Positions 1 through 23,284 are shown, counted from the first letter of the stretch. The stretch is DNA of 27,131 nucleotides from Vulcanimicrobiota bacterium (GCA_003135555.1 PLCF01000021.1:1-27131), one strand, 5' to 3'. A program made the numbers and translations. The notes: generated by a model from the sequence alone, not told the origin.

Positions 1-18
1 ACGGCGAAGGGCGTTCGT

Positions 19-3000
19 ATGATCCGAGGCGTGGGCCTGCGTTCGGCGGTCGCGATCAACGTCGCGACGATGGTCGGAGCCGGCCCCTTCATCACGCTGC
101 CGCTGATCGTCGGGGCGCTGCACGGTGTGTCTGCGGTCGCTTGGGTCGTGGGAGCGCTGATCGCGCTTTGCGACGGCCTCGTGTGGGCGGAGTTGTCGTC
201 GCGCTATCCGCGCAGCGGCGGGACGTATACCTATCTGCGCGAGGCGTTCGGACCGCGCGGCCCCGGGCGCCTGGTCGGGTTCCTCTTTATTTGGCAGTTT
301 CTCTTCTGGGCTCCGCTCATTCTCGCGTCGGGCTACATCGGCTTCGCACAGTATGCGGCCTATCTCGCTCCGGCGATCGCGGCGCCGCTTCCCACCCATC
401 TGCTGGCGGCGGCAGTTGGGGTCGTCACGCTGATCGCGCTGTACCGTCCTATCCCGCAGATCGCACGCACCGCTCTTCTGCTGGGCGCCATCGCGCTCGC
501 GACGCTCGTCGTGGTCGCGGTCGCCGGCCTGTCGCACCCCTACGCGCCCCTGGCGCATACGATCCCGATGACCTTCACCTTTGCGGTTCCGATCGTCGCG
601 CTGGGCGCGGCGCTGGTCTACACGATTTACGACTACGGCGGGTACGGCGACGTCTGCGCGCTTGGCGATGAGGTTCTCGCTCCGGCACGCACGATGCCGC
701 GTGCCGTCGTGCTCTCGGTCCTCTTCGTCGGCGTCGCGTACGTGCTGCTCAACCTGGGCGTCGCGGCGGCGATCCCGGCGAAGGAGATCGCCGCGTCGAC
801 CGCAATCGCATCGCTGGTCGCCCAACGCGCGTTCGGTGCACCGTTCGCCGTTGTCGTCACGATCGCGGTCATGATCACCGCCTTCGCGTCGACGTACGGG
901 CTCTTGCTGGGCGGTTCGCGCATCCCGTATGCCGCCGCGCGCGACGGTGAGTTCCTGGCCCGGTTCGCGCGACTTCATCCGAGCGGCAAGTTTCCGGCGT
1001 TTTCGCTCCTCACCATCGGGATTCTGGCCCTGCCCGCGTCGCTGCTGCCGCTCGACTTCGTGATCAACGCGCTGACGGCGGGGATCGTGCTCATTCAGGG
1101 CATGGGCCAGATCGTAGCGCTCGCGCTCGCGCGGCGCGGGCGCGCCGAATCGCCGTTCCGCGTCCCGCTCTATCCGCTGCCGCCGCTGATCGCCCTGGCC
1201 GGCTGGATCTTCTTGTTCTGGTCGACCGGGGCGCTCGCAATTGCTTTTGGCCTCGTCACGCTCGCGGTGGGAGCTGCGGTCTACCTCATCCGTGCGCGTG
1301 CCGTGCGCGGCTGGCCGTTCGCCGCTGCGGCCATCGCGTCGATCTTCACGGTGATCTGCGCGGCACTCCCCGCAGCGGCGGGCCCGCAGCCGCCGGCTGG
1401 ACCGAGCTTCGGTCATGCAGTCGTCGTGCAACGTGACGGCGAGCCGCGGCTGCTGGTGGACGGGAAGCCCTTCTTCTTCTGGGGCGGCGCGTTCTTCTAC
1501 GAGCGCATCCCGGCCGCGGGGTGGCGCAGCTCTATGCTGGCGATGCGCGAGCTCGGGGCGAACACGCTCGATCTCTACGTGCCGTGGAATTGGCACGAGC
1601 TCGCCGACGGGCGGTTCGACTTCGACGGGCACACCGATCCGCGCCGGAACCTGCGCGAGGTGCTGCGACTCGGTGCAAGCCTGGGCTTTCACTTTCTGGT
1701 GCGCCCGGGTCCGGTGATCCGCAACGAGTGGCGTAACGGCGGCTACCCCGCGTGGCTGCTCACCCGGCCGGAGTACGAGATGCCGCTGCACGACGTGCTC
1801 GAAGGGCGCTACCCGGCGACGGCGACGCTGCAGAACGCGCACAGCGACGACGCGGCCGCCGAGTGGATGCGCAACGCGACGCACCTGCGCTACGCTGCAC
1901 GCTGGCTGCACCGTGCACTGGCGGAGTTCCGGCCGTACGCCGACCGCGTCCTGGCGGTGCAGCTCGACGACGATCAGGCCGCCTACATCGACAATCAAAC
2001 GTATCCCGCGCCGCACATGCAACGCTATCTGCGCTGGCTCGACGCGCAGGTTCGCGACGTGATCGGCCCGGCAACCCCGACGTTCATCAACACCTTCGAG
2101 ATGCGCGTGCCGGCGGCGTCGCCGGTGTGGACGATGGGGAACTGGTATCAGAGCGACGCCTACACGATCGGGACGCACGATCGAGTCGAACTCGACCTCA
2201 CGACGCTGCTGCTGGCGACCAACCGGCGCGGACCGCTGGCGCAGAGCGAGTTCCAGGCCGGTTGGTTGGCCGGGGCCGAAGACCCGCAGCCCCGCTCGGC
2301 GGATCCGCGCAACACGACCGTCGCGTTGGATGAGCTGCTCGCGCTGGGCGCGCAGGGCATCGTGGATTTTCCCATGCAGGATACGCGCGCCGAGCCGGGT
2401 TGGGAGGCCCCATTTTCCAACGCCAGCTATGGCTGGGACGCGGCACTCCGCGCCGACGCCCTCGGGCGGCCGTCTCTGTTCTGGTCGAAACCCGATTCGC
2501 GCTTCTGGCCCACCCACGCGTTTGGGCGACTGATCGCCCGCCTCGCGCCGGTGCTGCTGGCGGCGCATCGCATCGCGCCGGTCGGCATCGCGTACGGCGA
2601 ACCCGCCCCGCGCGCAGATTCGCGGCCGCCGGACGGCGCGGCGGTCGTCGTCGCGCGCGCCCGCGCCGCGCTGACGGCGTGCATCGAACGCGGGCTGACT
2701 TGCGATCTCGTCGACGTGCGCCGGCCACCGCCGCATCTCGAGCGGTACACGACGCTGGTGATCCCACCGGAGACCGCCGCTGCAGCCCCGGCCGCCGTGC
2801 GCGCGCTGCACGCGCGGCTCGCGGCTGCGCATACCCTCTTCACTGCGGCGGTGCCGCAACGACGTGGACCGGGGACGACGATGCTGGCCGGTCCGGCCGG
2901 ACGGATCGAGTTCGGTGCGAATTGGACCGACCAGCCGTCGCCGGTGCGTTTTGTGAGCGGCGCGGCGAGCGTGCCGGCGCATGAGGTCGTCGTGCGCATC

Positions 3001-4104
3001 GACGACGTCGCGCTGAGCGCGCTGGGCGCCCGCGACGACAGCCGGCGCATATCGTCCGATTGCGGTTTTGAAGCGTTGGCGACGGCTTCCGCACAACCGT
3101 ACCAAACGGTGCTCACCTCCGAATCCGGCTGCCGCGTCACGCTACGCGGCGGCGGACGGCCGCGGACGCTCCGGCTCGCGCCGCGCGAGCGGTTGACGGT
3201 GCCGGGCCTGCGCCGCCTCGCGGCGGTCGACGACTTCTCGGAATCGAGCAGCAGCGAGGACTTTGCTTTTGCGATGGGCACCCGGGCCGGCGATTCGGTG
3301 GTGACGCGACAGCACGACGACGACTTCGGCGGCGACGCGATCGTCCTGGCGAACGACCGGATCTGGCTGGAACTCGACCCCCAGGCTGGTGCGCGCGCGT
3401 TCCGGCTGGTAGCCTTCGGTCCGGTGCTCAACTCCAGCGCGGGAACGTTCTTCGCACCCAACGCCTTTGACGCCACCGGTGCGTTCCGCGACGACGTGAG
3501 CCTCCCGGTGCCGCCGTCGGCGCGCGACTACATCGCGAAGTACACGCACGACTATCCCGCCGGCACCTTCAATCGGAGCTACCGCGCCGACGTGCTCGAA
3601 TCCGGGCCGCAGGCCACCGTCCGATTCTCGTACGCGATGCCCGATGCTGCACCGGCGGGGCTGACGTTCGAGCGAATCGTCTCGCTGGCGCCGCACTCTT
3701 GGCGCGTCGTCGTCGACGAGCGACTGACCGCGCCGCCGCGAGCGTCGCTCGGCGCTCAGCGCGCGATCGTGCGCTCCTCGCTGCCCGCGCTCGCGCTCAT
3801 CGGTCCCGGCCCGGTCGGGCTCGACCCGTTCCCACCGCCCCTCGGCGCGGCTGCGCCGGCGACGAACGGTTTGGCCACGTTCCGGGGCAAGGCGGTCTTC
3901 GCGGTCAGTTGGCGCGCGGGCGACGTGGAGCGCGCGAGCTGGACCGCGTACCGCAGTACGGGGACGTTGGCCCTCACCCTGGCGCCCGGCTGGCGCCGCA
4001 CGACGTACGTCTACGCGCCCGCATCGTCCGCCGACGCAGCCCGGCGAATCGCGCAAGCGGAGCGCGCATGGATCGCCGCGAACCCCGCTCCGGAACGTCG
4101 ATAG
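19..4104 (+). CDS. Fusion protein: APC-superfamily permease (aa ~1-430) + extra signal-like hydrophobic segment + GH35-like (beta-galactosidase / GlmA exo-beta-glucosaminidase-like) catalytic domain + C-terminal beta-rich domains
   Basis: Single 1361-aa ORF. N-terminus has ~12 hydrophobic segments and APC motifs (MVGAGPF, WAELSSRYPRSGGTYTYLREAFG, GGSRIPYAAARDG, FARLHP, PFRVPLYP). GH35 motifs follow (LLVDGKPF, YVPWNWHE..GRFDF, VRPGP.IRNEWRNGGYPAWL, SEFQAGW). The frame is open upstream of position 19, so the start is not certain. Confidence 0.88.
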   Translation: MIRGVGLRSAVAINVATMVGAGPFITLPLIVGALHGVSAVAWVVGALIALCDGLVWAELSSRYPRSGGTYTYLREAFGPRGPGRLVGFLFIWQFLFWAPLILASGYIGFAQYAAYLAPAIAAPLPTHLLAAAVGVVTLIALYRPIPQIARTALLLGAIALATLVVVAVAGLSHPYAPLAHTIPMTFTFAVPIVALGAALVYTIYDYGGYGDVCALGDEVLAPARTMPRAVVLSVLFVGVAYVLLNLGVAAAIPAKEIAASTAIASLVAQRAFGAPFAVVVTIAVMITAFASTYGLLLGGSRIPYAAARDGEFLARFARLHPSGKFPAFSLLTIGILALPASLLPLDFVINALTAGIVLIQGMGQIVALALARRGRAESPFRVPLYPLPPLIALAGWIFLFWSTGALAIAFGLVTLAVGAAVYLIRARAVRGWPFAAAAIASIFTVICAALPAAAGPQPPAGPSFGHAVVVQRDGEPRLLVDGKPFFFWGGAFFYERIPAAGWRSSMLAMRELGANTLDLYVPWNWHELADGRFDFDGHTDPRRNLREVLRLGASLGFHFLVRPGPVIRNEWRNGGYPAWLLTRPEYEMPLHDVLEGRYPATATLQNAHSDDAAAEWMRNATHLRYAARWLHRALAEFRPYADRVLAVQLDDDQAAYIDNQTYPAPHMQRYLRWLDAQVRDVIGPATPTFINTFEMRVPAASPVWTMGNWYQSDAYTIGTHDRVELDLTTLLLATNRRGPLAQSEFQAGWLAGAEDPQPRSADPRNTTVALDELLALGAQGIVDFPMQDTRAEPGWEAPFSNASYGWDAALRADALGRPSLFWSKPDSRFWPTHAFGRLIARLAPVLLAAHRIAPVGIAYGEPAPRADSRPPDGAAVVVARARAALTACIERGLTCDLVDVRRPPPHLERYTTLVIPPETAAAAPAAVRALHARLAAAHTLFTAAVPQRRGPGTTMLAGPAGRIEFGANWTDQPSPVRFVSGAASVPAHEVVVRIDDVALSALGARDDSRRISSDCGFEALATASAQPYQTVLTSESGCRVTLRGGGRPRTLRLAPRERLTVPGLRRLAAVDDFSESSSSEDFAFAMGTRAGDSVVTRQHDDDFGGDAIVLANDRIWLELDPQAGARAFRLVAFGPVLNSSAGTFFAPNAFDATGAFRDDVSLPVPPSARDYIAKYTHDYPAGTFNRSYRADVLESGPQATVRFSYAMPDAAPAGLTFERIVSLAPHSWRVVVDERLTAPPRASLGAQRAIVRSSLPALALIGPGPVGLDPFPPPLGAAAPATNGLATFRGKAVFAVSWRAGDVERASWTAYRSTGTLALTLAPGWRRTTYVYAPASSADAARRIAQAERAWIAANPAPERR

Positions 4105-4108: not shown

Positions 4109-4191
4109 GGGGAAGTGGCGAAACGGTATACGCAGTCGCCTCAAAAGCGACCGAGTGAGAGCTCATGTGGGTTCGAGTCCCACCTTCCCCA
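4109..4191 (+). tRNA. tRNA-Leu (anticodon CAA), long variable arm, CCA not encoded
   Basis: Acceptor stem GGGGAAG/CTTCCCC plus discriminator A; D-arm GCGAAACGGTATACGC; anticodon stem GTCGC/GCGAC with loop CTCAAAA; T-arm GTGGG-TTCGAGT-CCCAC. Confidence 0.96.
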
Positions 4192-5265
4192 ATGAGCGGC
4201 GTCTCTGATTTCGCGCGCGAGTCGTATCGTATCGACCAGCAGATTTGGGATGCGCTGGCGTTACGACCCGGCGAGCGCGCCCTGTTTTTGGGGGTAGCGA
4301 ACGAGGGCGCCTGGATCGCCCGCGCCGCCGAGCTCGGCATCGACGTCACCGTACTCGCCACGAGCGACGCGGCGATCGCACTGAGCGAGAAGCTCGGCGC
4401 CACCGCGATGCGCGGCAGCGCCACGATGATTCCGGCGACCGACAACGCCTACGACGTCGCGGTCGCGATGCACGTGTTGCACGAGATCGATCCGGGCTTT
4501 CACACCCAAGTCGTCGCCGAGCTCGCACGCGTCGGCAAGCGCGTCGCGATCGTCGAACCGTCGCCGCCGGCCGACCCGCTGGGCAAGCGCATCGCGGCGC
4601 TGTACGCGCGCGCCAAGCGCGAGGCGGGACAATTCGAGGCCTATCAGCCGCTCGAGTATTGGCGCAAGCTGCTGGCGCTGGTCAAGGGCGACGTGTGGCA
4701 GAACCTGTTCACCTTCACGCGCATCGCACCCAAGGACGCGGTCTCCGAGACGATCGCGTTGATCCTCGACGCGATGGTGATCGAGGAGATGCCCAGCGCG
4801 TACCTCGACGAGTTGCGCGAGCTGGCGGCGCGGCGCGACGCGCAGTTGCTGCCGCTGTCGCGCATCGTGCTGGTCGGAATCACCTCGGGCGAGCCGCTGC
4901 CGCAGGGAAGCGGCGCCGCATTTCGGCCGAACGTCGCGTTGGGTCCGCCGCCGGCAGCGCCGGCGGAAAAGACGCTTGCGGGCGCGTCCGGCCGTCCGGC
5001 CCCCGCACCGGTGCCCGCGTCGCCGCCCCCGCCGCCGAGCTTCGGGTTCGCGGCCGAGACGCCACCCGTCGGTGCGGGGATGGGGACCCCGGAGCTGCCG
5101 TCCCCGGCGGCGCCACCGGCTCGGCAGGCCTCGCCCTTCGGCGGTCCGTTCGCGCTGCCGGGAGGCGAAGACGAAGCGCCGTTCGGCGGCACCGCCGGCG
5201 AACCGGGCACGGGGTTCGGCTGGACCTGGGAGCCGCCCGAAGACCCGCTAAAAAAGCCGGACTAG
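4192..5265 (+). CDS. Class I SAM-dependent methyltransferase-fold protein (degenerate motifs) with long Pro/Ala-rich C-terminal tail
   Basis: LRPGERALFLG and IPATDNAYDVAVAMHVLHEI...VVAELARVGKRVAIVE resemble the Methyltransf_11-type core. ATG 4192 chosen because the longer ORF (4165) lies inside the tRNA. Confidence 0.7.
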   Translation: MSGVSDFARESYRIDQQIWDALALRPGERALFLGVANEGAWIARAAELGIDVTVLATSDAAIALSEKLGATAMRGSATMIPATDNAYDVAVAMHVLHEIDPGFHTQVVAELARVGKRVAIVEPSPPADPLGKRIAALYARAKREAGQFEAYQPLEYWRKLLALVKGDVWQNLFTFTRIAPKDAVSETIALILDAMVIEEMPSAYLDELRELAARRDAQLLPLSRIVLVGITSGEPLPQGSGAAFRPNVALGPPPAAPAEKTLAGASGRPAPAPVPASPPPPPSFGFAAETPPVGAGMGTPELPSPAAPPARQASPFGGPFALPGGEDEAPFGGTAGEPGTGFGWTWEPPEDPLKKPD

Positions 5266-5269: not shown

Positions 5270-5608
5270 CTAGCGCCGCGCGGCGCGGCGGAAGGCCGCG
5301 AACTCGCGCCACAGCCGTCCGAACGCGGCGGCCAGCTGCGGCGGAATCGGGCCGCGACAAATGACCGCCGCAGCCGCACGCGCGCGCGCCAACAGCGGCG
5401 CGAGTTGGGCCAGCGCGGAATCGATGCGCCCTACGTCGCGTTCGGCGCGTTCCAACGCCGCGACGACCGGCAGGTCGGCGTACTCTTCGACCCGGGTTGC
5501 GATGCGCCCGATCTCGCGCAGCGCAGACGCGACCTGAAGGCCCGCGAGGGCCAGCACGACGATCAAGGCGACGAGCGTCGCCCAGAGAACGAGTGCCGCC
5601 GGCGACAC
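5270..5608 (-). CDS. Small protein with one N-terminal membrane anchor and a helical/coiled-coil domain, hypothetical
   Basis: N-terminal hydrophobic stretch LVLWATLVALIVVLALAGL; GTG start overlaps the TAG of the upstream FmdB-like gene. Confidence 0.65.
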   Translation of the reverse strand: MSPAALVLWATLVALIVVLALAGLQVASALREIGRIATRVEEYADLPVVAALERAERDVGRIDSALAQLAPLLARARAAAAVICRGPIPPQLAAAFGRLWREFAAFRRAARR

Positions 5609-5976
5609 TAGGCCGCGCTCGACTCGCTCTTCTTGGGTTTCGAATCGCCGCCGCTCGCGGGTGCCGCCGGAGCGGCTGTCGTTCCGGACGCCGCGGGCGT
5701 GGCGGGCGCCGCCGGGGTGGACGACCCGGACTCGCCGGATGTACTCGACTCGCCGGACTTGCTCGACTCAGCGGATTTCGAGGACTCGGTCGACTTCGGC
5801 CGCGAGTCGTTGATGTAGAAGCCCGAACCTTTGAACACGATCCCGGCCGGATTGAAGACCCGGGACATTTCGTCGCTGCCGCAGGCCGGGCACGCGCCTT
5901 CGAAGACCTCGCGGAAGCCATGGCGGACTTCGCTGATCTTCGAGCACGTGCGGCACTGGTAGTCGTAGAGCGGCAA
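5608..5976 (-). CDS. FmdB-family zinc-ribbon protein with low-complexity Ser/Ala/Pro tail (Ruc/Rv0991c-like)
   Basis: TTG start at 5976 with GGAG upstream gives MPLYDYQCRTC...CPACGS...GIVFKGSGFYIND, the FmdB signature. Confidence 0.9.
   Translation of the reverse strand: MPLYDYQCRTCSKISEVRHGFREVFEGACPACGSDEMSRVFNPAGIVFKGSGFYINDSRPKSTESSKSAESSKSGESSTSGESGSSTPAAPATPAASGTTAAPAAPASGGDSKPKKSESSAA
5725..5796 (-). repeat. Four imperfect 18-nt tandem units encoding KSTESS-KSAESS-KSGESS-TSGESG
   Basis: Units AAGTCGACCGAGTCCTCG / AAATCCGCTGAGTCGAGC / AAGTCCGGCGAGTCGAGT / ACATCCGGCGAGTCCGGG read on the minus strand. Confidence 0.75.
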
Positions 5977-6007
5977 GGGGATCTCCGGAAGGGAAGTTGC
6001 TTCCGAT

Positions 6008-6036
6008 AGTTTAGCGACTTTAGCAGACGCCGTCAA
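6008..6036 (-). promoter_or_regulatory. Sigma70-type promoter for the FmdB-like gene
   Basis: Minus strand TTGACG-17 nt-TAAACT (-35 at 6031-6036, -10 at 6008-6013). Confidence 0.75.
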
Positions 6037-6046
6037 CGAGTGCTAG
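6020..6046. promoter_or_regulatory. CIRCE element (HrcA operator)
   Basis: TTAGCAGAC-N9-GAGTGCTAG versus consensus TTAGCACTC-N9-GAGTGCTAA (15/18 match, exact 9-nt spacer); encloses the -35 hexamer. Confidence 0.85.
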
Positions 6047-6549
6047 AAGTCGTCGAGGACCCCATCCGGTGCCCGGTCGTACTCGACGAGCCCCTTGAAG
6101 TGGATCAGCGAGTCGTTCAGGGCGATGTCGAGCTTGCGTCGGCGGGTAAGGCGGTCGAACAGCGCGCCGAGCGCCCCGCCGTAGGTCGGGTAGTCGACGC
6201 GCACCACCAGCTTCGAGCGCTCGGACTTCTGCTCGATCCGGATGTCGATGCGGCGCCGCACCGAGTAGGCGCCCACGAGCGAGAGCTGGTGGCCCGGGAT
6301 GAAACGGTCGACTTCGAAGAGCTCTTCGTCCTCCCCGGGGATGTTGGAGCGGATCGCGACTTCGCTGCCCAGCCCGAGCGGTTGGGACGGTTCGGCGCGG
6401 CGCGCGCTGCGCAGGAACGAGAGCCAGACCGGCCACTTCTCGACCTCGCAGACGAGGTCGAACGCGGTGCGCGCGGGCGAGGCAACGTCCTGGCTGCGAA
6501 AGAGCGCCCGCGGTGACGGCCGGTCGAGAGACACGGACGGCATTGCCAT
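6043..6549 (-). CDS. SRPBCC (polyketide cyclase/START-like) family protein
   Basis: VASPARTAFDLVCEVEKWPVWLSFL...LGLGSEV pattern and C-terminal helix LNDSLIHFKGLVE. Start could be 6543, 6549 or 6555. Confidence 0.8.
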   Translation of the reverse strand: MAMPSVSLDRPSPRALFRSQDVASPARTAFDLVCEVEKWPVWLSFLRSARRAEPSQPLGLGSEVAIRSNIPGEDEELFEVDRFIPGHQLSLVGAYSVRRRIDIRIEQKSERSKLVVRVDYPTYGGALGALFDRLTRRRKLDIALNDSLIHFKGLVEYDRAPDGVLDDF

Positions 6550-6593
6550 GAGCACCCGGTTCGTCGGCGCTTGGACCTAAAGCCTGCCTTAAG

Positions 6594-6641
6594 ACACAAT
6601 ATATTGTGCACGCCGTCCACAATTACTACTAGGCCTTGTGG
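6594..6641. promoter_or_regulatory. Tandem NrdR-box-like sites upstream of the SRPBCC gene
   Basis: ACACAATATATTGTGC (6594-6609) matches the NrdR palindrome acaCwAtATaTwGtg; a degenerate copy CTACTAGGCCTTGTGG starts 32 nt later (6626-6641). Confidence 0.65.
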
Positions 6642-6669
6642 ACGGGCCCTGGGGAACGTGTGGAAACCG

Positions 6670-7845
6670 TCAGCGAATGGCTACGGCCCCCGAGCCGATT
6701 CCCCGGGCGAAGGCGACCAAGGTCTCGATCCCGGTCGGGATCGCGCCCTCGTCGAGCCGGAATTGCGGGCTGTGCCCGGCGTGGACGCTGCCGACGGCCT
6801 CGTTATAGATCCCGAGGCGGACCAGCACGCCCGGGACGCACTGCGCGAAGTACGCGAAGTCTTCCCCGCCCATCGTCGGCGCCGGCCGTTCGACCGTGAA
6901 ACCGCGCTCGCGCGCGTACTGCGCGAACGACTCGGCCAGCGCCGCATCGTTGATGACCGCGGGATAGCCGAGCAGCATTTCGAGCTGCACCTGCGCGCCG
7001 TACGCCGCCGCGATCCCGTCGACGATGCGCCGCAGCTTCCCCGTCGCCGCTTCGCGCACGGCCGGATCCTGAGTGCGCAACGTGCCCGTCATCGTCACGC
7101 GGTCGGCGATGACGTTGTTGCGATAGCCGCCCTCGATCGTGCCAATGGTGACCACGATCGGGGCCAGCGGATCGGTCTCGCGCGCCGCGACGTTTTGCAA
7201 CGCGAGAACCATCGCGGCGGCGCACGGGATCACGTCGACCGCTTTGTGCGGAGAAGCGCCGTGGCCACCCTTACCGCGAATGGTGAGGTGGAACTCGTCG
7301 GCGGCCGCGTTTACCGGGCCCGGCGTGATGCCGATCGTCCCGGTCGCGAGCCGCGAGTCGACGTGCAGCATCGTGACGGCTTCGACCTTCGGGTTTTCGA
7401 GCGCGCCTTCTTCGATCATCGGCTTGGCGCCGCCGGGCCCCTCTTCGGCGGGCTGGAACAGCAACACCACCGAACCGTGCAGCGTCTCGCGCGATTCTTG
7501 CAGCACGCGTGCCGCACCGAGCAGCATTGCCGTGTGCGAGTCGTGGCCGCAAGCGTGCATCTTCCCGGGCACCTCGGAGGTGCAGGCTTCGCCCGAGTCC
7601 TCGGTGATCGGCAGCGCGTCCATGTCGGCGCGCAGCCCCGACACGTGGCCGGGCAGCGCACCGCGGATGACACCGACGACGCCAGTCTGCGCGGCGCGGT
7701 AGTGCTCGATTCCGAGCGCATCGAGCTCGCGCTCCACGATCGCTTGGGTGTTGTGCTCTTCGAAACCCAGCTCCGGATGGCGATGGATCTCCCGCCGAAT
7801 CGCGACGGCGCGTTCGACGGTCGGGGCCGGCAAGGTGGCTGACAT
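6670..7845 (-). CDS. M20D family amidohydrolase (hippurate hydrolase / aminoacylase-like)
   Basis: HRHPELGFEE, LRADMDALP, MHACGHDSH, FQPAEE, GGHGASPH and GEDF motifs; ATG 7845 preceded by GAGGACGGAG. Confidence 0.93.
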   Translation of the reverse strand: MSATLPAPTVERAVAIRREIHRHPELGFEEHNTQAIVERELDALGIEHYRAAQTGVVGVIRGALPGHVSGLRADMDALPITEDSGEACTSEVPGKMHACGHDSHTAMLLGAARVLQESRETLHGSVVLLFQPAEEGPGGAKPMIEEGALENPKVEAVTMLHVDSRLATGTIGITPGPVNAAADEFHLTIRGKGGHGASPHKAVDVIPCAAAMVLALQNVAARETDPLAPIVVTIGTIEGGYRNNVIADRVTMTGTLRTQDPAVREAATGKLRRIVDGIAAAYGAQVQLEMLLGYPAVINDAALAESFAQYARERGFTVERPAPTMGGEDFAYFAQCVPGVLVRLGIYNEAVGSVHAGHSPQFRLDEGAIPTGIETLVAFARGIGSGAVAIR

Positions 7846-7903
7846 GCGATCTCCGTCCTCCGCGGCGTGACCCGCGCCCTCCCGCTTCACGTCGTGCGAC
7901 CGG

Positions 7904-7941
7904 AAAAGCACGACGGCCCGCCGGGCGGCGAGCCGTCGTGC
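7904..7941 (-). terminator. Intrinsic terminator after ftsZ
   Basis: Minus strand GCACGACGGCTCGCC-GCCC-GGCGGGCCGTCGTGC followed by TTTT, 13 nt after the ftsZ stop. Confidence 0.8.
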
Positions 7942-7954
7942 GGAGGCGACTCGC

Positions 7955-9031
7955 TCAGCCGCGGTAGCGGAGGAAGGCTGGGACTTCGATGTCGTCCATG
8001 TTGACGGGGGCGACCTTGTCGAAGTCCGAGGGCTGGCCGGACAGCGCCGAGGCGCTCGCGGCGCGGTGCTGGCGCGCGCCGCCGAAGCCGGCGGCGAGAA
8101 CCGTGACGCGCACCTTGCCGTTGAGGCTCGGGTCGATCGAGGCGCCGAAGATGATCTGCGCCTCGCTATCGACCGCTCGCGCGATCATCTCGGCGGCTTC
8201 GTTCACCTCGTACATCGACATGTCGGATCCGCCGGTGATGTTGAAGATCACGCCGCGCGCGCCTTCGATCGTCGTCTCGAGCAGCGGTGACGCGATCGCC
8301 TTCTGCGCGGCATCCGCGGCGCGGTGCTCGCCCGTGCCCTCGCCGATCCCCATCATCGCCGTTCCGGCGTCGGTCATGATCGTCTTGACGTCGGCGAAGT
8401 CGAGGTTGATGAGGCCGGGCTGCGTGATGAGGTCGGTGATCCCTTGGATCCCCTGGCGCAGCACGTCGTCGGCATATGCGAACGCTTCGTTGAGCGGCGT
8501 GCGCTTCTCGATGATCTGCAGGATGCGCTCGTTGGGGATGGTGATGAGGGTGTCGACCTTGGATTCGAGGTCGGCGATGCCGCGTTCGGCCGCCTGCATC
8601 CGTTTGCGTCCCTCGAAGCCGAACGGTTTGGTCACGACGGCCACGGTGAGCGCACCGGACTCGCGCGCCAACTCCGCGATGACCGGCGCTGCGCCGGTCC
8701 CCGTCCCGCCGCCCATGCCGGCGGTGATGAAGACCAGATCGGCGCCGTCGAGGATCATCGCGAGGTCCTCGCGCGACTCATCGGCCGCCTCGCGCCCGAT
8801 GTTCGGGTTCGAGCCCGCACCCAGGCCGCGTGTGAGGCCGCTGCCGATCTGCACGGTGTTGTTCGTCTTTGAATTTCGCAGCGCTTGGACGTCGGTGTTG
8901 ATGGCATAGAAGTCGCAGCCTGTCAGCCCCGCCTCGATCATGCGGTTGACCGCATTGCAGCCGCCGCCGCCGAGTCCGATCACTTTGACCGCTGCCGCGT
9001 GCTCGGGCACGAACCGTTTCGGATCAGACAT
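7955..9031 (-). CDS. ftsZ: Cell division protein FtsZ
   Basis: [16 protein letters not shown], tubulin signature [17 protein letters not shown] and C-terminal IEVPAFLR peptide. Start 9031 (ATG) or 9037 (GTG). Confidence 0.99.
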
Positions 9032-9070
9032 GTTCACAGTTTCCTCTTGCGGGAAGAGTGGGAGCAACGA

Positions 9071-10291
9071 TCAATTCCAGAGCGACTTGAACCAGTCGCC
9101 GAGTCGTGCCAGGACGCCCGAGGCCTGGCCGTTGAGATGCGGCGCTTGTTCGCCGCGCGGACCGAAGAGTACCAACCCGATCGCGGTGGCATACTCGGGC
9201 TGTTTTACGGCGTCGGTCAGCCCCGCCACGGTGGCAGGCACGCCGATCCGCACCGGAAGCCCGAAGACCTCCGCCGCGGTGGTCTCGATTCCGCGCAGGT
9301 GCGCTCCGCCGCCGGTGATGACGACTTCGCTGAGCACCTGATCGCGGGGGATATGGGACACGATGTTGGCCCGCGCCAACCGGAAGATCTCCAGCACGCG
9401 CGGGACGACGATGCTGCGCAGCTGCGAGGACGTCACCTCGCGCGTGCTGCGCCCGTCAAGGGACTTGACCTGGAACGACTGCTCGGCTTCGTCGGCACGC
9501 ACCAGCCCCGAGCCGTACGTGCGCTTGACGTTCTCGGCTTCGGCGAAGGTGGTCTTGAGCCCCAATGCGATGTCGTTGCTCAGGATGTTTCCGCCGACCG
9601 GGATGGTCGCGCTGTGGAGCACCCCGCCCTCGGCGAACACCGCGATGTCGGTGGTGCCGCCGCCGATGTCGAGCAGGATGACGCCGACCTGCTTCTCCTC
9701 GGGTAGGAGCGTCGCGGCCGCCGAAGCCAGCGGCTCGAAGACGATCCCGGTGGGTTCCAGCCCCGCGCGGTGAACGCATTTGAGCACGTTGGAGATGAAA
9801 GACGATCCGCCGGTGACGATGTGGGTGTCGACCTCGAGCCGTCCCCCGCTCATCCCGACCGGATCGGTGACGCCGTCCTGACCGTCGATGGTGTAGTGGC
9901 GCGGCAGCGCGTGGACGATCTGCCGGTCGGCCGCCACGTTGATGATCTTCGACGCATCCACGACGCGCTTGACGTCAGCGCCGATGACCTCGCGGTCGTC
10001 ACCGGTGACCGCAACGACGCCCCGGTTGTTGGTCGACTGCATGTGCTCGCCGGTGACGCCGACGTACACGTGCGAGACGTGAACGCCAGCCATGCGTTCG
10101 GCCTTTTCGGTCGCAGCCTCGATGGCGTGAACCGTCGCTTCGAGATCGGTGACGACGCCCTTGCGCATCCCCGTTGACACGGCTTCGCCGACGCCGATGA
10201 TCTCGAGTCCGTCGGGACCGGATGAGGCGATGACGGCACACGTCTTCGTCGTGCCAATGTCCAGGCCAGCGATCGTCTCGCCCCTAGCCAT
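9071..10291 (-). CDS. ftsA: Cell division protein FtsA
   Basis: GLDIGTTKT, GMRKGVV, LLDIGGGTTD, ITGGGAHL, YATAIGL and C-terminal amphipathic helix RLGDWFKSLW. Confidence 0.98.
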   Translation of the reverse strand: MARGETIAGLDIGTTKTCAVIASSGPDGLEIIGVGEAVSTGMRKGVVTDLEATVHAIEAATEKAERMAGVHVSHVYVGVTGEHMQSTNNRGVVAVTGDDREVIGADVKRVVDASKIINVAADRQIVHALPRHYTIDGQDGVTDPVGMSGGRLEVDTHIVTGGSSFISNVLKCVHRAGLEPTGIVFEPLASAAATLLPEEKQVGVILLDIGGGTTDIAVFAEGGVLHSATIPVGGNILSNDIALGLKTTFAEAENVKRTYGSGLVRADEAEQSFQVKSLDGRSTREVTSSQLRSIVVPRVLEIFRLARANIVSHIPRDQVLSEVVITGGGAHLRGIETTAAEVFGLPVRIGVPATVAGLTDAVKQPEYATAIGLVLFGPRGEQAPHLNGQASGVLARLGDWFKSLWN

Positions 10292-10312
10292 CCGTCCTCG
10301 CCATCACTTGCA

Positions 10313-10383
10313 CCACGACATATTGGGGGCAACCACGCCAATACCTACAAGATAATCCACAGGCGTCCACAATCACATCCACA
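10313..10383. promoter_or_regulatory. NrdR-box-like site(s) plus three DnaA-box-like TCCACA direct repeats upstream of ftsA
   Basis: CCACGACATATTGGGG (10313-10328) and a weak half-match CTACAAGATA starting 32 nt later (10345); TAATCCACA 10353, GCGTCCACA 10363, ACATCCACA 10375. Confidence 0.5.
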
Positions 10384-10399
10384 GCGCGCGGGGGATGGA

Positions 10400-11185
10400 T
10401 CAGCGAAACTCGACCGTCGGTGTCCCCGGCGACCGCAGGTCGATCGCACGGATCGGCCGCTTTGTCCCCATAGCGGTTCGCACCGGCTCGACCAAAGCGG
10501 CTTTCTTCATCAAGTCCCCGTCGTCGCCGAATTTGACGATGACGCCGGTCACGTCTACCGCTTCGAGGCCGCCCCAGCGGTCGCGGTCCAGGCTGCGCAC
10601 GCTCACGTTCGCCTTTACAAGCACGCGCGCGTCCCCCAGCAGTTGCCGCACCTCCGGATCGGCGATCGTTCCGCCCGGCGGCGGAAGCTTCGCGCTGCCG
10701 GCAACGATCCGCGGGAGCGTCGTTGCGACGCAGCCGGTCTGCAGCACGCGCGACACATCATCGATCGTCACGTCGAGCTCGCCCGCGCGCACGCAGGCCG
10801 AGGGCCGCCGTACCGTGATCGCCAGCTCCACGAAGGGGTGCGGAAATTGGCCGCGGTGAACGGCGGCGCGATCGACGTACGGGATCGCCTCGATGCGGCC
10901 GCGCATCGCCCACGGGTTGAGCAGCCAGACGTTGGCGTCGGCCCCGACGCCCGCGGCAGCCCGCACCCGATCGCGGCTGACCGCCGAGGCGATCGGAACG
11001 TCGATTCCGATCCGCGCTACGCGGAACGTGGGCGACGTCACGAACCAGACGGCGCCCCAGGCCGCCAGCCCGGCGAGCGGGATCGCGAAGATCCAGAACG
11101 GCTTGACCCGCGCCGCAAGCGACGGTTTGCGCCGCAGCGTGCGCGGGCTGGTACCTCCGCCGCCGCGGCGCGCCGTCGTCTTCAC
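10400..11185 (-). CDS. ftsQ: Cell division protein FtsQ/DivIB-like
   Basis: Basic N-tail, single TM, POTRA-like region (FRVARIGI...NVWLLN...IEAIPYVDRAAVHR.FP), C-terminal IDLR motif; directly upstream of ftsA. Confidence 0.85.
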   Translation of the reverse strand: MKTTARRGGGGTSPRTLRRKPSLAARVKPFWIFAIPLAGLAAWGAVWFVTSPTFRVARIGIDVPIASAVSRDRVRAAAGVGADANVWLLNPWAMRGRIEAIPYVDRAAVHRGQFPHPFVELAITVRRPSACVRAGELDVTIDDVSRVLQTGCVATTLPRIVAGSAKLPPPGGTIADPEVRQLLGDARVLVKANVSVRSLDRDRWGGLEAVDVTGVIVKFGDDGDLMKKAALVEPVRTAMGTKRPIRAIDLRSPGTPTVEFR

Positions 11186-13337: not shown

Positions 13338-14128
13338 GTGGCGGTGCCGGCGCCATGGCGGCCGGCACCGGCTGCGAACCGGCCAGCGCCCGCGACGCCT
13401 TCGGCAAACACGATCTCGTAGCCGGCGGCGCCTTCGCGGCGTAGCGCTTCGCGCTCGTCGGCATCCCATGCGCCGTAGGCGCTGCGCCGGTCGGTCAACA
13501 TGCAGCGTTGCGGCGACGCGGCGATCTCGCGCGCCAGCGCCTCGGCGGCGTCGCGCGCGCAGCCGGCGCCCACGACGCGGTTGGCGAGCCCGAACGCCAG
13601 CGCTTCCTGCGCGCCCACGGCGCGGCCGGTCAGGATCATGTCGAGTGCGCGGCCCAGGCCGATGAGACGCGGCAGCCGCACGGTGCCGCCGTCGATGAGC
13701 GGAACGCCCCAGCGCCGGCAGAACACGCCGAACGTCGCGTCTTCTTCGACGACGCGCAAATCGCACAGCAGCGCGAGCTCCAGCCCGCCCGCGACCGCGT
13801 AGCCGCAGACCGCTGCGACGACCGGCTTGGTCAGGAGCATCCGCGTCGGGCCCATCGGCCCGGGTCCGACGCCGTCGGGCTCGATCTCGTTGCGGCGCCC
13901 GTCGTCGCCCAGCGCGGTGAGGTCGGCCCCGGCGCAAAACGTCCCGCCCGCGCCCCACAGCACGGCCACGCGCAGCGCGGCGTCGGCTTCGAACGCAACG
14001 AAGGCCGCGCGTAGCGCCGTCGCGACCGCACGGTCGACCGCGTTGCGCTTGGCGGCGTTGTCCATCACGATCGTCGCCACGGGATCGGCACGCTCGAGCC
14101 GCACCCCGGCCCCGAACTCGACGGTCAC
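13334..14128 (-). CDS. Crotonase / enoyl-CoA hydratase family protein
   Basis: RNAVD, FCAGADL, KPVVAAVCGYAVAGGLELALLCDLRV, FGVFCRRWGVPLIDGGTVRLPRLIG, GLANRVV. Confidence 0.95.
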   Translation of the reverse strand: MTVEFGAGVRLERADPVATIVMDNAAKRNAVDRAVATALRAAFVAFEADAALRVAVLWGAGGTFCAGADLTALGDDGRRNEIEPDGVGPGPMGPTRMLLTKPVVAAVCGYAVAGGLELALLCDLRVVEEDATFGVFCRRWGVPLIDGGTVRLPRLIGLGRALDMILTGRAVGAQEALAFGLANRVVGAGCARDAAEALAREIAASPQRCMLTDRRSAYGAWDADEREALRREGAAGYEIVFAEGVAGAGRFAAGAGRHGAGTAT

Positions 14129-14766
14129 GCCGGTACCGCGGTGAGCCGCTCGAGCAGCGCTGTGAGGGCGTCGTACTTGGCGCGAAAGCGCACCGGGTTC
14201 ACGACGAAGCGCGCCGTGCTCTCGGCGATCTCTTCGACCACGACCAGATCGTGCTCGCGCAGCGTCGTGCCCGTGGCCACGAGGTCGACGATGAGGTCGG
14301 CGAGGCCGACGAGCGGGCTGAGCTCCACCGAGCCGTGCAGCGGGATGAGCTCAACCGGCAGGTCGCGCTCGGCGAAGAACGTTTCGGCCGAGCGCGTGAA
14401 CTTCGTCGCCACCCGCAGGAACGTCGGCAGCGGCGCCCCCTCGTGGTAGCGATCGATACGGCGTCCGGCGAGGACCAGCCGGCAGTACCCGAATCCTAAG
14501 TCGGCGAGCTCGGCGACGTTCCGGTCGGTTTCCCACAGCGTGTCCTTGCCGACGATGCCGCAGTCGGCCGAGCCGAACTCGACGTAGGCCGGAACGTCGC
14601 TGGGCCGCAAGAACAGCAGCGTCGTGCCGTCCGCGGTCCGCACGGTGAGCTTGCGCCCGACGTGCTCGGGGACGTCGATCCCCGCCGCGCGCAAGCGCGC
14701 GGCCGCGTCGCGGTACAGCGCTCCTTTGGGCAACGCGATGGTGAGCGGCCCACCCTGAGCTGTCAT
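14125..14766 (-). CDS. hisG: ATP phosphoribosyltransferase, short form (catalytic subunit)
   Basis: LTIALPKG, DVPAYVEFGSADCGIVGKD, LRVATKF, LHGSVELSPLVGLADLIVDLVATGTTLREHDL; 213 aa with no regulatory domain, adjacent to hisZ. Confidence 0.96.
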   Translation of the reverse strand: MTAQGGPLTIALPKGALYRDAAARLRAAGIDVPEHVGRKLTVRTADGTTLLFLRPSDVPAYVEFGSADCGIVGKDTLWETDRNVAELADLGFGYCRLVLAGRRIDRYHEGAPLPTFLRVATKFTRSAETFFAERDLPVELIPLHGSVELSPLVGLADLIVDLVATGTTLREHDLVVVEEIAESTARFVVNPVRFRAKYDALTALLERLTAVPA

Positions 14767-14791
14767 CCTGAGCCTGTCGAAGGACGAAGGG
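14751..14791. repeat. Nested REP-like short repeat (GTCAyCCTGAGC-nnnn-CGAAGG type)
   Basis: CACCCTGAGC[TGTCATCCTGAGCCTGTCGAAGGAC]GAAGGG: one unit appears inserted inside a second. Only this locus is visible in the window. Confidence 0.6.
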
Positions 14792-14794
14792 CGG

Positions 14795-16003
14795 TCAACG
14801 GGCGTCCCAGTTCGAGGGCGTGCGCGGGATCGGCAACTCGTCGACGCGCGGTCCGACGCGCAGCTCGCGCACGGTCCCGTCGAGCGCGATCACGACGCGC
14901 GGAATGTCGTGGGCCCGCGCCTCCTCCACGAGCGCCTCATCACCGAGGTCCGCGCCGGCGAAGCGCACGACGTTCCCGGCGGCGCGCTCGCGCGCCGCGA
15001 CGACGTCGGAACCCGCGACGAGCACGTCGACGCGATGACGGCGCCGGCGGACATGCTTCCCGCGGCGCTCGAGCGCGATGAGCAGCCGCTCGACGCCGGC
15101 CGTCCAGCCGACGGCGGGGACGTTGTAGCCGAAGCGCGGCAGCAACGAGTCGTAGCGGCCCCCGCCGCACAACGAGAACCCGATCTCCTCGACGTAGCCC
15201 TCGAACAGGAACCCGGTGTAGTAGTCGAGGTCGCGCAGCAGCGCGAAGTCGACCGTGACCCGCGGGCCATAGCCCAGCGCGTCGGCGCGACGCAGCAGGA
15301 TGTCGAGGGCGTCGAGGGCGGCGCGTGATTCGGGGGTACGACAGATGCCGCGCGCGCTGTCGATCGCTTCGTGGCGCCCGCGGCGTTGCGCGAACTCCAC
15401 CAGCGCCGGGCGATCGAACTTTCGCAGGCCGACGAGGTTGCGGACCTTCATCAGCTCCTTGGCCTCGCGTGCCTGGTCCGGTTCGAGCCCCGCACCGCTG
15501 AGGATGCCGTCGACGATCCGCGCGTCGTTGACGTCGAAGCGCGCATCGCGCAAACCGATCTCGTCGAGCGCTTCGATCGCCATGAACAGCGTCTCGGCGT
15601 CGGCGTCGATCCCGGCGGCGCCGATGAGCTCGGCGCCGGCCTGGGTGAGCTCGCGCATGCGGCCTTCCTGCGGCTGCTCGTAGTAGCGGAAAACCGGCGC
15701 GATGTAGGCCAGCCGCAGCGGCACAGGCGCCTCGCGCATGCGCGTCGACACCATCCGCGCGATCGGGGTCGTCATCTCGGGCCGCATCGCCAGCGCCGTC
15801 GAACGCCGGTCGTTGAACTGGAACAGCAGCTCGGTCGCCTCCTCGCCGAGGCCGCGCTCCATCACGTCGAAACGCTCGATGATCGGCGTCTGGACCTCCT
15901 CGTAGGCCCAGCGCCCGAACACCGCGCGCATCTGCTGCTCGATCTCACGCTTGCGCGCCAGCTCGTGCGGCAACCAGTCGCGAACGCCTGCCGGAAGTCT
16001 CAC
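14795..16003 (-). CDS. hisZ: ATP phosphoribosyltransferase regulatory subunit
   Basis: HisRS-like sequence (RLPAGVRDWLP, LAMRPEMTTPIAR, RELTQAGAELIG, LDYYTGFLFEGY, GGGRYDSLL) next to short hisG; GTG 16003 overlaps the dnaE stop. Confidence 0.93.
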   Translation of the reverse strand: MRLPAGVRDWLPHELARKREIEQQMRAVFGRWAYEEVQTPIIERFDVMERGLGEEATELLFQFNDRRSTALAMRPEMTTPIARMVSTRMREAPVPLRLAYIAPVFRYYEQPQEGRMRELTQAGAELIGAAGIDADAETLFMAIEALDEIGLRDARFDVNDARIVDGILSGAGLEPDQAREAKELMKVRNLVGLRKFDRPALVEFAQRRGRHEAIDSARGICRTPESRAALDALDILLRRADALGYGPRVTVDFALLRDLDYYTGFLFEGYVEEIGFSLCGGGRYDSLLPRFGYNVPAVGWTAGVERLLIALERRGKHVRRRRHRVDVLVAGSDVVAARERAAGNVVRFAGADLGDEALVEEARAHDIPRVVIALDGTVRELRVGPRVDELPIPRTPSNWDAR

Positions 16004-19000: not shown

Positions 19001-19443
19001 TCGTTCTTGAGCAGTGGCGCCGAGACCATCGACGACATGCAGCCCGACAGCACGATGAGCCCTTCGTTGTACTGCGCGAGCAAGTCCATGTCGATGCGCG
19101 GCTTGTAGTAGTAGCCTTCCAGGAAACCTTTCGAGATCAGCCTCGTGAGGTTCTTGTAGCCGACGTCGCTGGCCGCGAGCAGCGTGACGTGGGCCTCGTC
19201 GCGCACGGTACGGTCGAAGCGTCCGCGCGGCGCGATATAGGCCTCGCAGCCGATGATCGGCGTCAGACCGACCTTCTTCGCGGCGTCGTAGAACTCGACC
19301 GCGCCGAACATCACGCCATGGTCGGTCAGCGCGATCCCGGGCGCGCCTTCGTTCGCCGTCTTCTTGCAAAGGTGTTCGACGCGGCATGCACCGTCGAGCA
19401 GCGAGTACTCGCTGTGGACGTGCAGATGGACAAAGGAGCTCAA
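16000..19443 (-). CDS. dnaE: DNA polymerase III alpha subunit
   Basis: HLHVHSEYSLLDG PHP domain, GPGRGSAVGS, RISMPDIDTDF, HAAGVVI, GLLKMDFLGL, YQEQ, GYGFNKCH, OB fold; TTG start. Confidence 0.99.
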   Translation of the reverse strand: MSSFVHLHVHSEYSLLDGACRVEHLCKKTANEGAPGIALTDHGVMFGAVEFYDAAKKVGLTPIIGCEAYIAPRGRFDRTVRDEAHVTLLAASDVGYKNLTRLISKGFLEGYYYKPRIDMDLLAQYNEGLIVLSGCMSSMVSAPLLKNDYATAKSNAKMFHDIFGDRYYIEIMRHGMPEEDVINEGLIRIARELGYPLVATNDSHYLLQSDAQAHDVLLCIGTGKTVQDTSRMKFFSDQFYVKSAEEMRELFADIPEACDNTLEIVKRIDIKIPDKVFYLPDYPVPKTDALFGPTAEEYLREQCEHGLLERYGAERVQNDPEIRERLEYELGVIIKMGYASYFLIVWDFIKYARDRDIPVGPGRGSAVGSIVAYCLHITDLDPIKFKLLFERFLNPERISMPDIDTDFCVERRDEVIKYVIEKYGKDRVAQIVTFGTMAARAAVRDAGRALGVPLPDVDRVAKLIPSGPGGLSIEKALEQIPELGVLYNHDPQIRKLLDTAKSIEGLARHASTHAAGVVISKNPLTDHVPLVRIGDGDVNTQYEMGDVERVGLLKMDFLGLRNLTVMKAASDEIRRTVAPDFDLAKMPDDDAKTYEMIGRGETLGMFQLESDGMKRVCTELKPSRLDDIIALVALYRPGPMELIPEYIHRKHGRKPVTYLHPALEPILDETYGIACYQEQVMRIARDLAGFSMGQADELRQVMGKKKKEQIPIYRKKFLDGCAANGLAPKLAEDIFAFIEPFAGYGFNKCHSAAYGWIAYQTAYLKANFPLQYFAALMSSVRDKTDKLVEYIDEAKKMGIAVLPPDVNASLVDFTVVAGEIRFGLAAIKGVGENGVRSILDTRDAAGPFVDLFDLVARVDLKAVNRKVFEALIKCGALDRLPGNRAQQLDALDSALEVASREARDRELGQSSLFGMIEEPHPSMKPSLRFQPAPTTMEQLAWEKETLGIFVSGHPLADVAEALARTGAIAVRDLRDLEDDSPVKIAGLVTAVRRTLTKAQTQMLFATVEDTTGAIECIVFPKGYADLQSRFVEDGIVVVTGRLRLRERRGSTPGEEVPLELNVSVNDVQIFDRNAALRSLPPAGWHVTVTRREQIDDLALLMSEWPGTTPLVLHINGSTVQRAVAADRRVRERLVAIVGAPNVREGAP

Positions 19444-19552
19444 CGAAAAGTCAACCTACGACTGGAGGGGCGGGCGCGGGAATGTCCTCTGATACCTGTG
19501 AACCCGCAACGCGCCCTGCGAGCGTACCAACGCTTACCAGAACCCACCGGCT

Positions 19553-19596: not shown

Positions 19597-19613
19597 CCCC
19601 GCGCCCACTCCAG

Positions 19614-20597: not shown

Positions 20598-20604
20598 GGC
20601 GGCG

Positions 20605-21553: not shown

Positions 21554-21597
21554 TGGTCTGAACACGACCTCGAAGGTAGAGGGGCGCAAACACACAG

Positions 21598-23280: not shown

Positions 23281-23284
23281 CCCC

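Follow-up and report, generated by a model that had tools for sequence, protein, structure and literature searches.

A single reading frame joins an APC permease to a predicted extracytoplasmic GlmA-like glycosidase module in Vulcanimicrobiota

Sus-like loci and AmpG with NagZ are two-protein systems that cleave and then import. Here we describe a gene that follows the same logic of a glycosidase with a dedicated carrier, but in which both are encoded in one frame. It occupies positions 19 to 4,104 (+) of a 27,131-nucleotide stretch of DNA from a peat-soil Vulcanimicrobiota bacterium (GCA_003135555.1 PLCF01000021.1:1-27131), hereafter the window, and its 1361 codons plus stop specify an APC permease, a signal-like 13th transmembrane (TM) segment (TM13) and a four-domain glycosidase-like ectodomain. 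The two-protein systems differ from it in being separate proteins, in their carrier families and in the location of their enzymes. Both parts of the window protein belong to well-known families, yet for their union, an APC carrier with a signal-peptide-like helix and an apparently exported GlmA-like enzyme, we found no description. Full-text literature searches, which leave most subscription journals outside their coverage, returned no paper on an APC-glycosidase fusion and, for glycoside hydrolase (GH) family GH35 in this phylum, nothing beyond one unrelated mention; the first-pass annotation of the window had likewise known of no characterized fusion of this kind. Our preferred reading, to which we assign slightly less than an even chance, is that the two modules form a coupled enzyme-carrier pair that cuts outside the cell and takes up the product.

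GlmA is, according to a review (PMC6566704), a cytoplasmic soluble homodimer in which Glu179 on β4 is the acid/base, Glu347 on β7 is the nucleophile and Asp178 reads the C2 ammonium group of glucosamine, with Tyr53, Glu103, Cys101 and Tyr379 making further contacts in the −1 subsite. It is both the best sequence match and the best structural match of the window ectodomain, with the same three-domain layout and with Asp178, Tyr53 and Glu103 kept. The window enzyme differs from it in following a signal-like segment on a permease, in carrying Asp for Glu179 and Arg, Asn and Pro for Cys101, Gly102 and Tyr379, and in adding a mutarotase-like domain of 270 amino acids (aa). A second group of structural matches is formed by IaSGT of Ignavibacterium album (GH35; PDB 7VKW and related; Z 26.9, 472 aligned), a soluble protein that matches the window protein in sequence over no more than the first ~110 barrel residues. 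IaSGT is a β-1,2-glucosyltransferase, and its description (PMC8861115) indicates that GlmA-like GH35 proteins can have non-galactosidase, even transglycosylating, chemistry.

On the carrier side, BasC (an Ala-Ser-Cys exchanger) and FrlA (fructoselysine) have the permease fold in common with the window protein, and both are stand-alone 12-TM proteins. A comparable layout is found in the heteromeric amino-acid transporters (b0,+AT-rBAT, LAT1-4F2hc and xCT-4F2hc), which likewise pair a 12-TM LAT-type carrier with an N-in/C-out helix bearing a glycosidase-fold triosephosphate isomerase (TIM) barrel ectodomain. Their GH13-like SLC3 heavy chains, rBAT and 4F2hc, are ancillary subunits of SLC7 light chains, and rBAT showed no glucosidase activity, as stated in PMC7159911.

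The fusion is a single open reading frame (ORF) of 1361 aa that starts with the ATG at position 19. The frame stays open back to base 1 of the window, the contig beginning 18 bases before the ATG; the gene is nevertheless complete at its 5′ end, because homologues begin with the same MIRGVGLRS. GC content at third codon positions is 0.85, the pattern of real genes in this 70% GC window. Pfam places AA_permease_2 (PF13520) at aa 6-400 (5.5e-35, 121.5 bits against a cut-off of 27, profile positions 2-395 of 427) and Glyco_hydro_35 (PF01301) at aa 478-588 (4.8e-30, 105.7 bits against a cut-off of 27, though only profile positions 2-108 of 319). With one frame, both domains and fused homologues, the uninterrupted permease-glycosidase ORF reported at first pass is borne out.

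Two separate genes can be joined spuriously by an assembly or sequencing error, and the contig does start only 18 bases before the start codon, but we found no point that supports this explanation. Positions 900-2100, which include the interval 1290-1420 over which the first-pass annotation had proposed to map reads, are covered by contigs of four public peat-metagenome runs, one of which (X1) is possibly the source sample while the others (X2, X3 and X6) come from other studies; none of the 13 runs listed was of RNA. These contigs contain zero inserted or deleted letters; pieces at 1300-1494, 1300-1610 and 1276-2100 bridge the junction itself, and the strain variants seen in the linker fall mostly at third codon positions. 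Recurrence of the fusion in independent assemblies and runs, with no indel at the junction, excludes an artefact, the residual probability of which we consider negligible.

The architecture is widespread among relatives. When the whole protein was used as query, PF13520 and PF01301 occurred together in 114 of the 120 best clusters (46-99% identity), the remaining six being proteins of 905-986 aa with the GH part only. A scan with one genome per species yielded 307 stretches encoding relatives, of which 80 were kept, almost all from Vulcanimicrobiota (Eremiobacterota, WPS-2); across these and the window's own locus (81 loci), the permease lies in the same frame for 48 of 82 GH-bearing ORFs. A junction-spanning query (aa 300-700) found matches in 212 of the 301 genomes sampled from the phylum, including 201 of 206 in the window's own family; matches elsewhere were weak, and the gene is all but absent outside that family. 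Among the 150 best genomic places, 121 begin at query residue 14 or earlier and cross the junction in one stop-free frame, and the other 29 begin at query residues 100-164, at or just before the signal-like segment. Leaving out the eight genomes flagged as unpublished gives 204 of 293 genomes overall, 193 of 198 for the family and 116 of 144 for the places. The fusion gene is single-copy in all 11 fused-form genomes checked (the window's own and ten others). The search for this Pfam architecture that the first-pass annotation suggested thus finds the fusion to recur in related genomes: relatives are mostly fused, the junction has neither stop nor frameshift, and the architecture is common in one family but uncharacterized.

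Ten loci (L014, L038, L044, L048, L052, L064, L066, L067, L074 and L079) are binned as Chloroflexota, Rhodospirillales, Alphaproteobacteria, Acidiferrales, Janthinobacterium, Binatia or Armatimonadota. Most of them show the same gene order as the Vulcanimicrobiota loci, and in trees several are placed at distances of 0.02-0.06 substitutions per site from Vulcanimicrobiota sequences; a likelier source of these labels than transfer is mis-binning.

The module that is expected to carry the product is the permease (aa 1-428; 19..1302, +). Hydropathy predicts 12 TM segments between aa 9 and 424 and a 13th at 431-452, and both the 12-TM core and the Pfam score above the gathering cut-off place the protein in the APC superfamily. 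NCBIfam models match it at scores far below their cut-offs: TIGR00909 (ABT-type; 1.9e-41, 142.4 bits against 556.8), TIGR00911 (LAT; 2e-32, 112.3 bits against 701.8) and the FrlA model NF008466 (4.6e-24, 85.2 bits against 800), with weak matches to PotE and AdiC models as well. By these profiles it is a LAT/ABT-like member of the superfamily that falls below every curated subfamily cut-off. Its best solved relatives are xCT (1.2e-44), BasC (1.3e-36) and LAT1 (2e-33), and it retains the TM1 G-A-G and the TM6 Y-x-Y-x-G-Y of these α-amino-acid exchangers. APC carriers move amines and amino-acid conjugates. The first-pass annotation, which cited FrlA as an example of the family, is right as to an APC permease; the closest relatives of the permease are LAT/SLC7-type amino-acid exchangers rather than FrlA.

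Between the permease and the enzyme lies a linker with TM13 (aa 429-457, RAVRGWPF...ALPAAAGPQ; 1303..1389, +), whose n-region, h-region and Pro/Ala-rich c-region resemble those of a Sec signal peptide or anchor. Structures of APC carriers have both termini in the cytoplasm and, because the core has both ends there, TM13 would run from inside to outside and place the remaining 900 residues outside the membrane. The signal segment was analyzed in 105 of the 120 proteins, six unfused ones and nine that do not fit the pattern being left out. All 105 carry a net charge of +2 to +4 over the eight positions that precede a conserved WPF; the uncharged stretch of TM13 has a median length of 17, borderline between signal peptide and anchor. 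Of 93 proteins, 82 have a Pro at positions −3 to −8 relative to an A-x-A, and in 43 of the 105 the A-x-A stops exactly two residues short of the enzyme's conserved start. The motif was considered as proof of a cleavage site, which a shuffle control weakened: small-x-small (105 observed, shuffled mean 100.9) is expected from the Ala-rich composition and A-x-A (93 observed) is slightly enriched over 200 shuffles (mean 80.4, maximum 92), so that the motif alone proves little. Better support for an export role comes from unfused orthologues that use the homologous segment as a signal peptide: the counterpart of TM13 is the N-terminal signal peptide in all six unfused proteins among the 120 clusters, and in further unfused ORFs. 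Together with the 12-TM core, TM13 and its charged n-region, this predicts that the glycosidase part lies outside the cytoplasmic membrane, in agreement with the cell-surface location proposed at first pass. Cleavage of the linker by signal peptidase I could, from its sequence, equally well occur or not. The system is accordingly single-chain in the sense of one ORF, as originally claimed, but with a signal-peptide-like linker the mature proteins may be two chains.

Such a fusion could also have arisen without any functional link between the modules, if loss of a stop codon joined a permease gene to the downstream gene of a secreted enzyme and cleavage of the internal signal peptide yields products that work independently. 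The n/h/c layout, the position of Pro relative to A-x-A, the 43 cases in which A-x-A lies two residues before the enzyme and the existence of unfused enzymes all fit such an origin. What happens in genomes where the two parts are separate argues otherwise. A stand-alone permease covering aa 1-434 (1-429 in one case) at 53-56% identity is present in all ten tested genomes with a permease-less GH gene, which were taken from eight separate branches of the GH tree; those stand-alone permeases that were read end a few residues past the WPF that opens TM13. No stand-alone permease was found in the five tested fused-form genomes or in the window's own (84% complete), which have only the fused copy. 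Moreover, the frame is held at 46-70% identity across the whole family, and neutral fusions are not so kept. We therefore regard an origin without functional link as very improbable.

The unfused proteins also record where they came from. Those closest to the window protein begin with M-x-x-x-(V/A)-G-L-R-S, corresponding to the first ten residues of the fused permease, followed directly by the signal peptide, and in-frame sequence upstream of the start is likewise common to unfused and fused GH genes. Because the ten permease residues and the upstream sequence are kept, these genes are in-frame deletions of the 12-TM part. The permease tree places seven stand-alone sequences in one clade (99/99) nested among fused ones, and three others are long-branched with frameshift-like splits. 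Unfused forms are scattered over the GH tree, where the starred branches force at least 11 changes, although some 'unfused' labels reflect contig truncations (L025, L033 and L034) or a frameshift (L037). Since both halves carry vestiges of a fused ancestor, the split forms descend from the fusion, and the sequences fit fission by duplication and complementary loss. Split genomes keep both halves and fused genomes have no extra permease, so the two modules are selected together; this co-retention is our best evidence that they work together.

An AlphaFold model of aa 455-1361 (predicted local distance difference test score (pLDDT) 86.3, predicted template modelling score 0.90) resolves the ectodomain into a GH35/GlmA-like (β/α)8 barrel (aa 467-849; 1417..2565, +), an α/β domain that aligns with GlmA domain II (aa 850-951; 2566..2871, +), a β domain that aligns with GlmA domain III (aa 952-1067; 2872..3219, +) and an extra galactose-mutarotase-like β-supersandwich absent from GlmA (aa 1092-1361; 3292..4101, +). 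The whole GlmA chain (5gsm) can be superposed on model residues 8-611 (Z 28.4, 524 aligned, root-mean-square deviation (rmsd) 3.4), and the barrel also superposes on human GLB1 (3thc; Z 28.0, 317 aligned, rmsd 2.6), as befits GH35. Foldseek matches the model to the GH35/GlmA fold (E 6e-19), and the best sequence match of the ectodomain among solved structures is again GlmA (3.6e-32); a search of the ESM Atlas returned an unlabelled GH35 cluster (score 0.93) and otherwise weak matches only. Pfam, the model and the superposition on GlmA thus agree with the GH35-type barrel and further C-terminal domains noted at first pass. The best NCBIfam GH model, exo-β-D-glucosaminidase NF041127, scores 102.7 bits against a cut-off of 1500 and aligns only at aa 477-583. 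Because this equivalog score falls short and the acid/base Glu is missing (below), the protein is GH35-related and GlmA-like, but not a GlmA.

No Pfam match was found for the C-terminal 293 aa or for aa 848-1094, even at E up to 5. Folded alone, the C-terminal domain gave a pLDDT of 85.1, and its structural matches are the GH38 C-terminal domain 7ufs (Z 18.8, 207 aligned, rmsd 2.7) and the putative mutarotase 3mwx (Z 18.7), with a further resemblance to the YidC periplasmic domain (about Z 15). The mutarotase-like supersandwich is a fold common in glycosidases, and the domain has no invariant His/Glu pair that would point to a working mutarotase.

The active site of the window protein matches that of GlmA in part. 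The counterpart of the motif LDDDQ (aa 649-653; 1963..1977, +), which stands at the end of predicted strand β4, is I-D-D-E-P in 5gsl and L-D-D-E-P in P0251 (hhalign probability 99.7), the latter a full-length GlmA-family protein (887 bits on NF041127) with Glu at residue 179. D651 corresponds to GlmA Asp178, so the amine-binding Asp is retained, and D652 takes the position of Glu179. An acid/base Glu in this position, within an N-E motif or, in GlmA, D-E, defines clan GH-A and GH35, but L-D-D-D-Q is invariant (Q in 119) and Asp652 is present in 120 of 120 proteins. A gap-free alignment to 5gsm equates Tyr53 and Glu103 of GlmA with invariant Y520 and E570, and Cys101 and Gly102 with invariant R568 and N569; Tyr379 apparently corresponds to invariant P785, hhalign pairing DFPMQ with NFYMM in a weak stretch of the alignment. 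The O4 contacts of GlmA, Cys101 and Tyr379, are thus replaced by Arg568 and, apparently, Pro785.

For the nucleophile, the motif SEFQ (aa 743-746; 2245..2256, +) at the end of predicted strand β7 is invariant in 67 of 67 fused proteins; in the model, the predicted strand 287-291 ends at E744. SEFQAGW resembles SIETQAF of P0251, although hhalign sets SEFQ opposite unrelated residues; that alignment of the family to P0251 can be trusted over the first ~200 residues and in its pairing of DDD with DDE. From strand position and motif likeness we take E744 as a candidate nucleophile, with invariant E796 as an alternative. Dozens of polar residues are invariant around the −1 subsite, including the GlmA-type Asp and two Glu.

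The DDD(Q) motif is not confined to fusions. It also occurs in many unfused relatives of 1100-1350 aa at 36-47% identity, in contrast to DDE in GlmA-like proteins and N-E in others; the entries P0154-P0173 are unfused 1100-1350-aa proteins with both DDDQ and (S/I)E(F/Y)QAGW. On this comparison, DDD is the signature of a larger uncharacterized GH35-related clade that extends beyond the permease fusions. The exchange of Glu for Asp, together with the Arg and Pro that are new on the O4 side, speaks for a substrate other than chitosan, and one might speculate that it possibly bears an acidic group. An amino-sugar enzyme like GlmA, as first suggested, is thus supported in that GlmA is the closest solved relative and Asp178 is kept, and called into question by the altered acid/base Glu and two altered O4 contacts.

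These observations can be assembled into the coupled enzyme-carrier pair that we prefer. The 12-TM permease would insert with both ends in the cytoplasm, and TM13, resembling a Sec signal, would carry the 900-aa C-terminal part across the membrane, where the ectodomain would either stay anchored by TM13 or be clipped by signal peptidase I. The exported enzyme, whose added mutarotase-like domain would bind sugar, would then remove from a glycan a terminal β-linked sugar with a positive charge at C2, that is an amino sugar, related to but different from the glucosamine of GlmA, and the permease would import the amine-bearing product. Several points weigh against this proposal. With Asp at the acid/base position in every protein, hydrolysis is not assured, and the O4-side changes suggest that the substrate is not simply chitosan. 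The nearest solved relatives of the permease and its TM1 and TM6 stretches suit an amino acid at least as well as a sugar. Near-universal presence in one family, in a single copy wherever this was checked, is not what one expects of an accessory scavenging gene. None of the conserved neighbours is a gene of sugar catabolism, and the split forms show that the covalent tether is dispensable. Taken as a whole, the first-pass interpretation is partly supported: the fusion, its recurrence, the predicted outside location, the kinship with GlmA and the co-retention of the modules speak for it, and the active-site changes speak against a simple GlmA reading.

Some of the same evidence is compatible with a counterpart of the heteromeric transporters, that is an ordinary LAT-type amino-acid exchanger whose glycosidase-like ectodomain would not supply its substrate but act as an ancillary subunit in stability or assembly, in attachment to the envelope or in sensing of ligands. 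Among solved structures the permease comes closest to SLC7 light chains and BasC, TM13 is oriented as in a type II heavy chain and is followed by a glycosidase fold with a TIM barrel, and genomes with split genes retain both modules. The enzyme part also lacks the canonical acid/base Glu, as rBAT lacks catalytic activity (PMC7159911). The N-in/C-out helix and the glycosidase-fold ectodomain reproduce that layout, but neither disulfide-joined chains nor a GH13 ectodomain is found: the window system is bacterial and one polypeptide where theirs are two disulfide-linked chains, its ectodomain is GH35/GlmA-like where theirs belong to GH13 (the α-amylase family), and the TM3-TM4 loop (aa 108-123 of the ORF) has no Cys for a heavy-chain disulfide. 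The strongly conserved active site, with its dozens of invariant polar residues in the −1 subsite, is unlike the usual decayed active sites, and because many permease-less relatives of 1100-1350 aa have DDD as well, the motif belongs to an enzyme clade rather than to a transporter accessory. We therefore consider a purely ancillary ectodomain unlikely, though it is the strongest competitor of the coupled pair. By this comparison the likeness is one of layout only, and likely reflects convergence rather than homology of the ectodomains.

The two ideas can also be combined, in a bacterial counterpart of the heteromeric transporters whose glycosidase-fold subunit is still an active enzyme and hands a charged sugar product directly to the LAT-like carrier, with which it would be made as one chain and from which the internal signal peptide would release it or to which it would anchor it. 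We think this doubtful, somewhat more so than an ancillary ectodomain. The product would be an amino sugar or a sugar amino acid, which would suit both the Asp and the new Arg of the pocket. If true, nature would here offer its first case of an enzyme handing over to a carrier of the APC fold, and with it a working model of why LAT carriers in animals are accompanied by a glycosidase-like subunit.

A different role for the same two activities is suggested by where the gene lies. It is found a few kb from ftsQAZ and beside an M20 peptidase gene, with synteny fixed across the family, and the enzyme might trim the cell's own wall or capsule glycan while the permease recovers the released unit, as part of housekeeping turnover rather than of nutrient scavenging. 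Presence in 201 of the 206 sampled family genomes (193 of 198 without the unpublished ones) and the single copy in the 11 fused-form genomes checked would be in keeping with such recycling. Plain vertical inheritance can, however, explain the conserved order, and the neighbours lie on the opposite strand or behind a tRNA gene. Recycling of the cell's own envelope is thus also rather unlikely in our view, about on a par with the direct hand-over.

The coupled pair remains our preferred reading, and the union on which it is based is a hallmark of one soil and peat bacterial family. It offers a natural example in which to study the joint production and retention of a membrane carrier and an extracytoplasmic enzyme. 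The uncharacterized GH35 clade with Asp in place of the acid/base Glu implies that either its chemistry or its substrate is new. The bacterial layout mirrors that of an animal LAT carrier with its glycosidase-like heavy chain, the purpose of which is still debated, and the system may bear on how these uncultured bacteria gain nitrogen-bearing sugars in peat.

Downstream of the fusion gene, a tRNA-Leu(CAA) gene (4109..4191, +) begins 5 bases past the stop codon; it marks the end of the coding part of the transcription unit and is itself outside the system. The tRNA gene overlaps the first possible start (4165) of the next ORF, which therefore probably starts further downstream. That ORF (4165..5265, +) encodes a Methyltransf_11-domain protein (2.1e-6) with a long Pro/Ala/Gly-rich C-terminal tail, and homologues of it come after the fusion gene, in the same orientation, in 16 of the 81 loci. 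A block conserved across the family comes next (5273..11185, −), comprising a small protein, a Zn-ribbon protein, an SRPBCC (Polyketide_cyc2) protein, the M20 peptidase, FtsZ, FtsA and FtsQ, and in the family it sometimes includes an extracytoplasmic function (ECF) sigma factor.

Upstream of the fusion gene, related loci contain glycerate kinase, DUF5069, cystathionine β-synthase, a Cys/Met pyridoxal-phosphate enzyme, a small secreted protein and a divergent PF00756 esterase. Cystathionine β-synthase and γ-lyase genes lie upstream on the same strand in 57 of the 81 loci. We considered this as a clue to a sulfur-amino-acid substrate and rejected it: the transsulfuration genes are separated from the fusion gene by others, including the divergent esterase gene, and the same order is found beside unfused GH genes. 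At L009:5561-8272 (+) a single 904-aa ORF combines PALP and CBS (cystathionine β-synthase-like) with Cys_Met_Meta_PP, possibly two fused transsulfuration enzymes, which most other loci encode separately. A search of L013 7300-8800 against Rfam (E up to 1) found no upstream riboswitch. Judged by its sequence, the context appears to be inherited gene order with little bearing on function.

An apparent upstream 'TrAA12-like' sugar dehydrogenase (E 4.7e-4) was discarded as an artefact of an over-extended ORF, the real gene encoding a secreted Asn/Gly/Pro-rich protein of ~175 aa. This protein has a lipobox-like L-A-A-C and an Asn/Gly/Pro-rich middle; its gene lies upstream on the same strand in 28 loci, about 1 kb from the fusion gene (L006-L039 and others; for example L013:6999-7523). 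The PF00756 'putative esterase' gene is divergent and directly upstream of the fusion gene in at least 17 of the 81 loci (for example L013:7586-8590, −), and a spurious minus-strand ORF of the window (1..3105) ends in ...DHTNALRR, which matches the over-extended N-terminus of the L013 esterase ORF; the esterase gene of the window's own genome would lie just beyond base 1.

Elsewhere in the window, a short-form HisG (213 aa) adjoins a histidyl-tRNA-synthetase-like protein (446 aa) at 14128-16135 (−), which we take to be the usual HisG/HisZ pair of ATP phosphoribosyltransferase. The region 17001-25000, which covers dnaE and a succinate-dehydrogenase-like operon, has a GC content of 0.63-0.66 compared with 0.67-0.74 elsewhere, and the stretch 19443-21598 contains no ORF that passes the codon-position filter.

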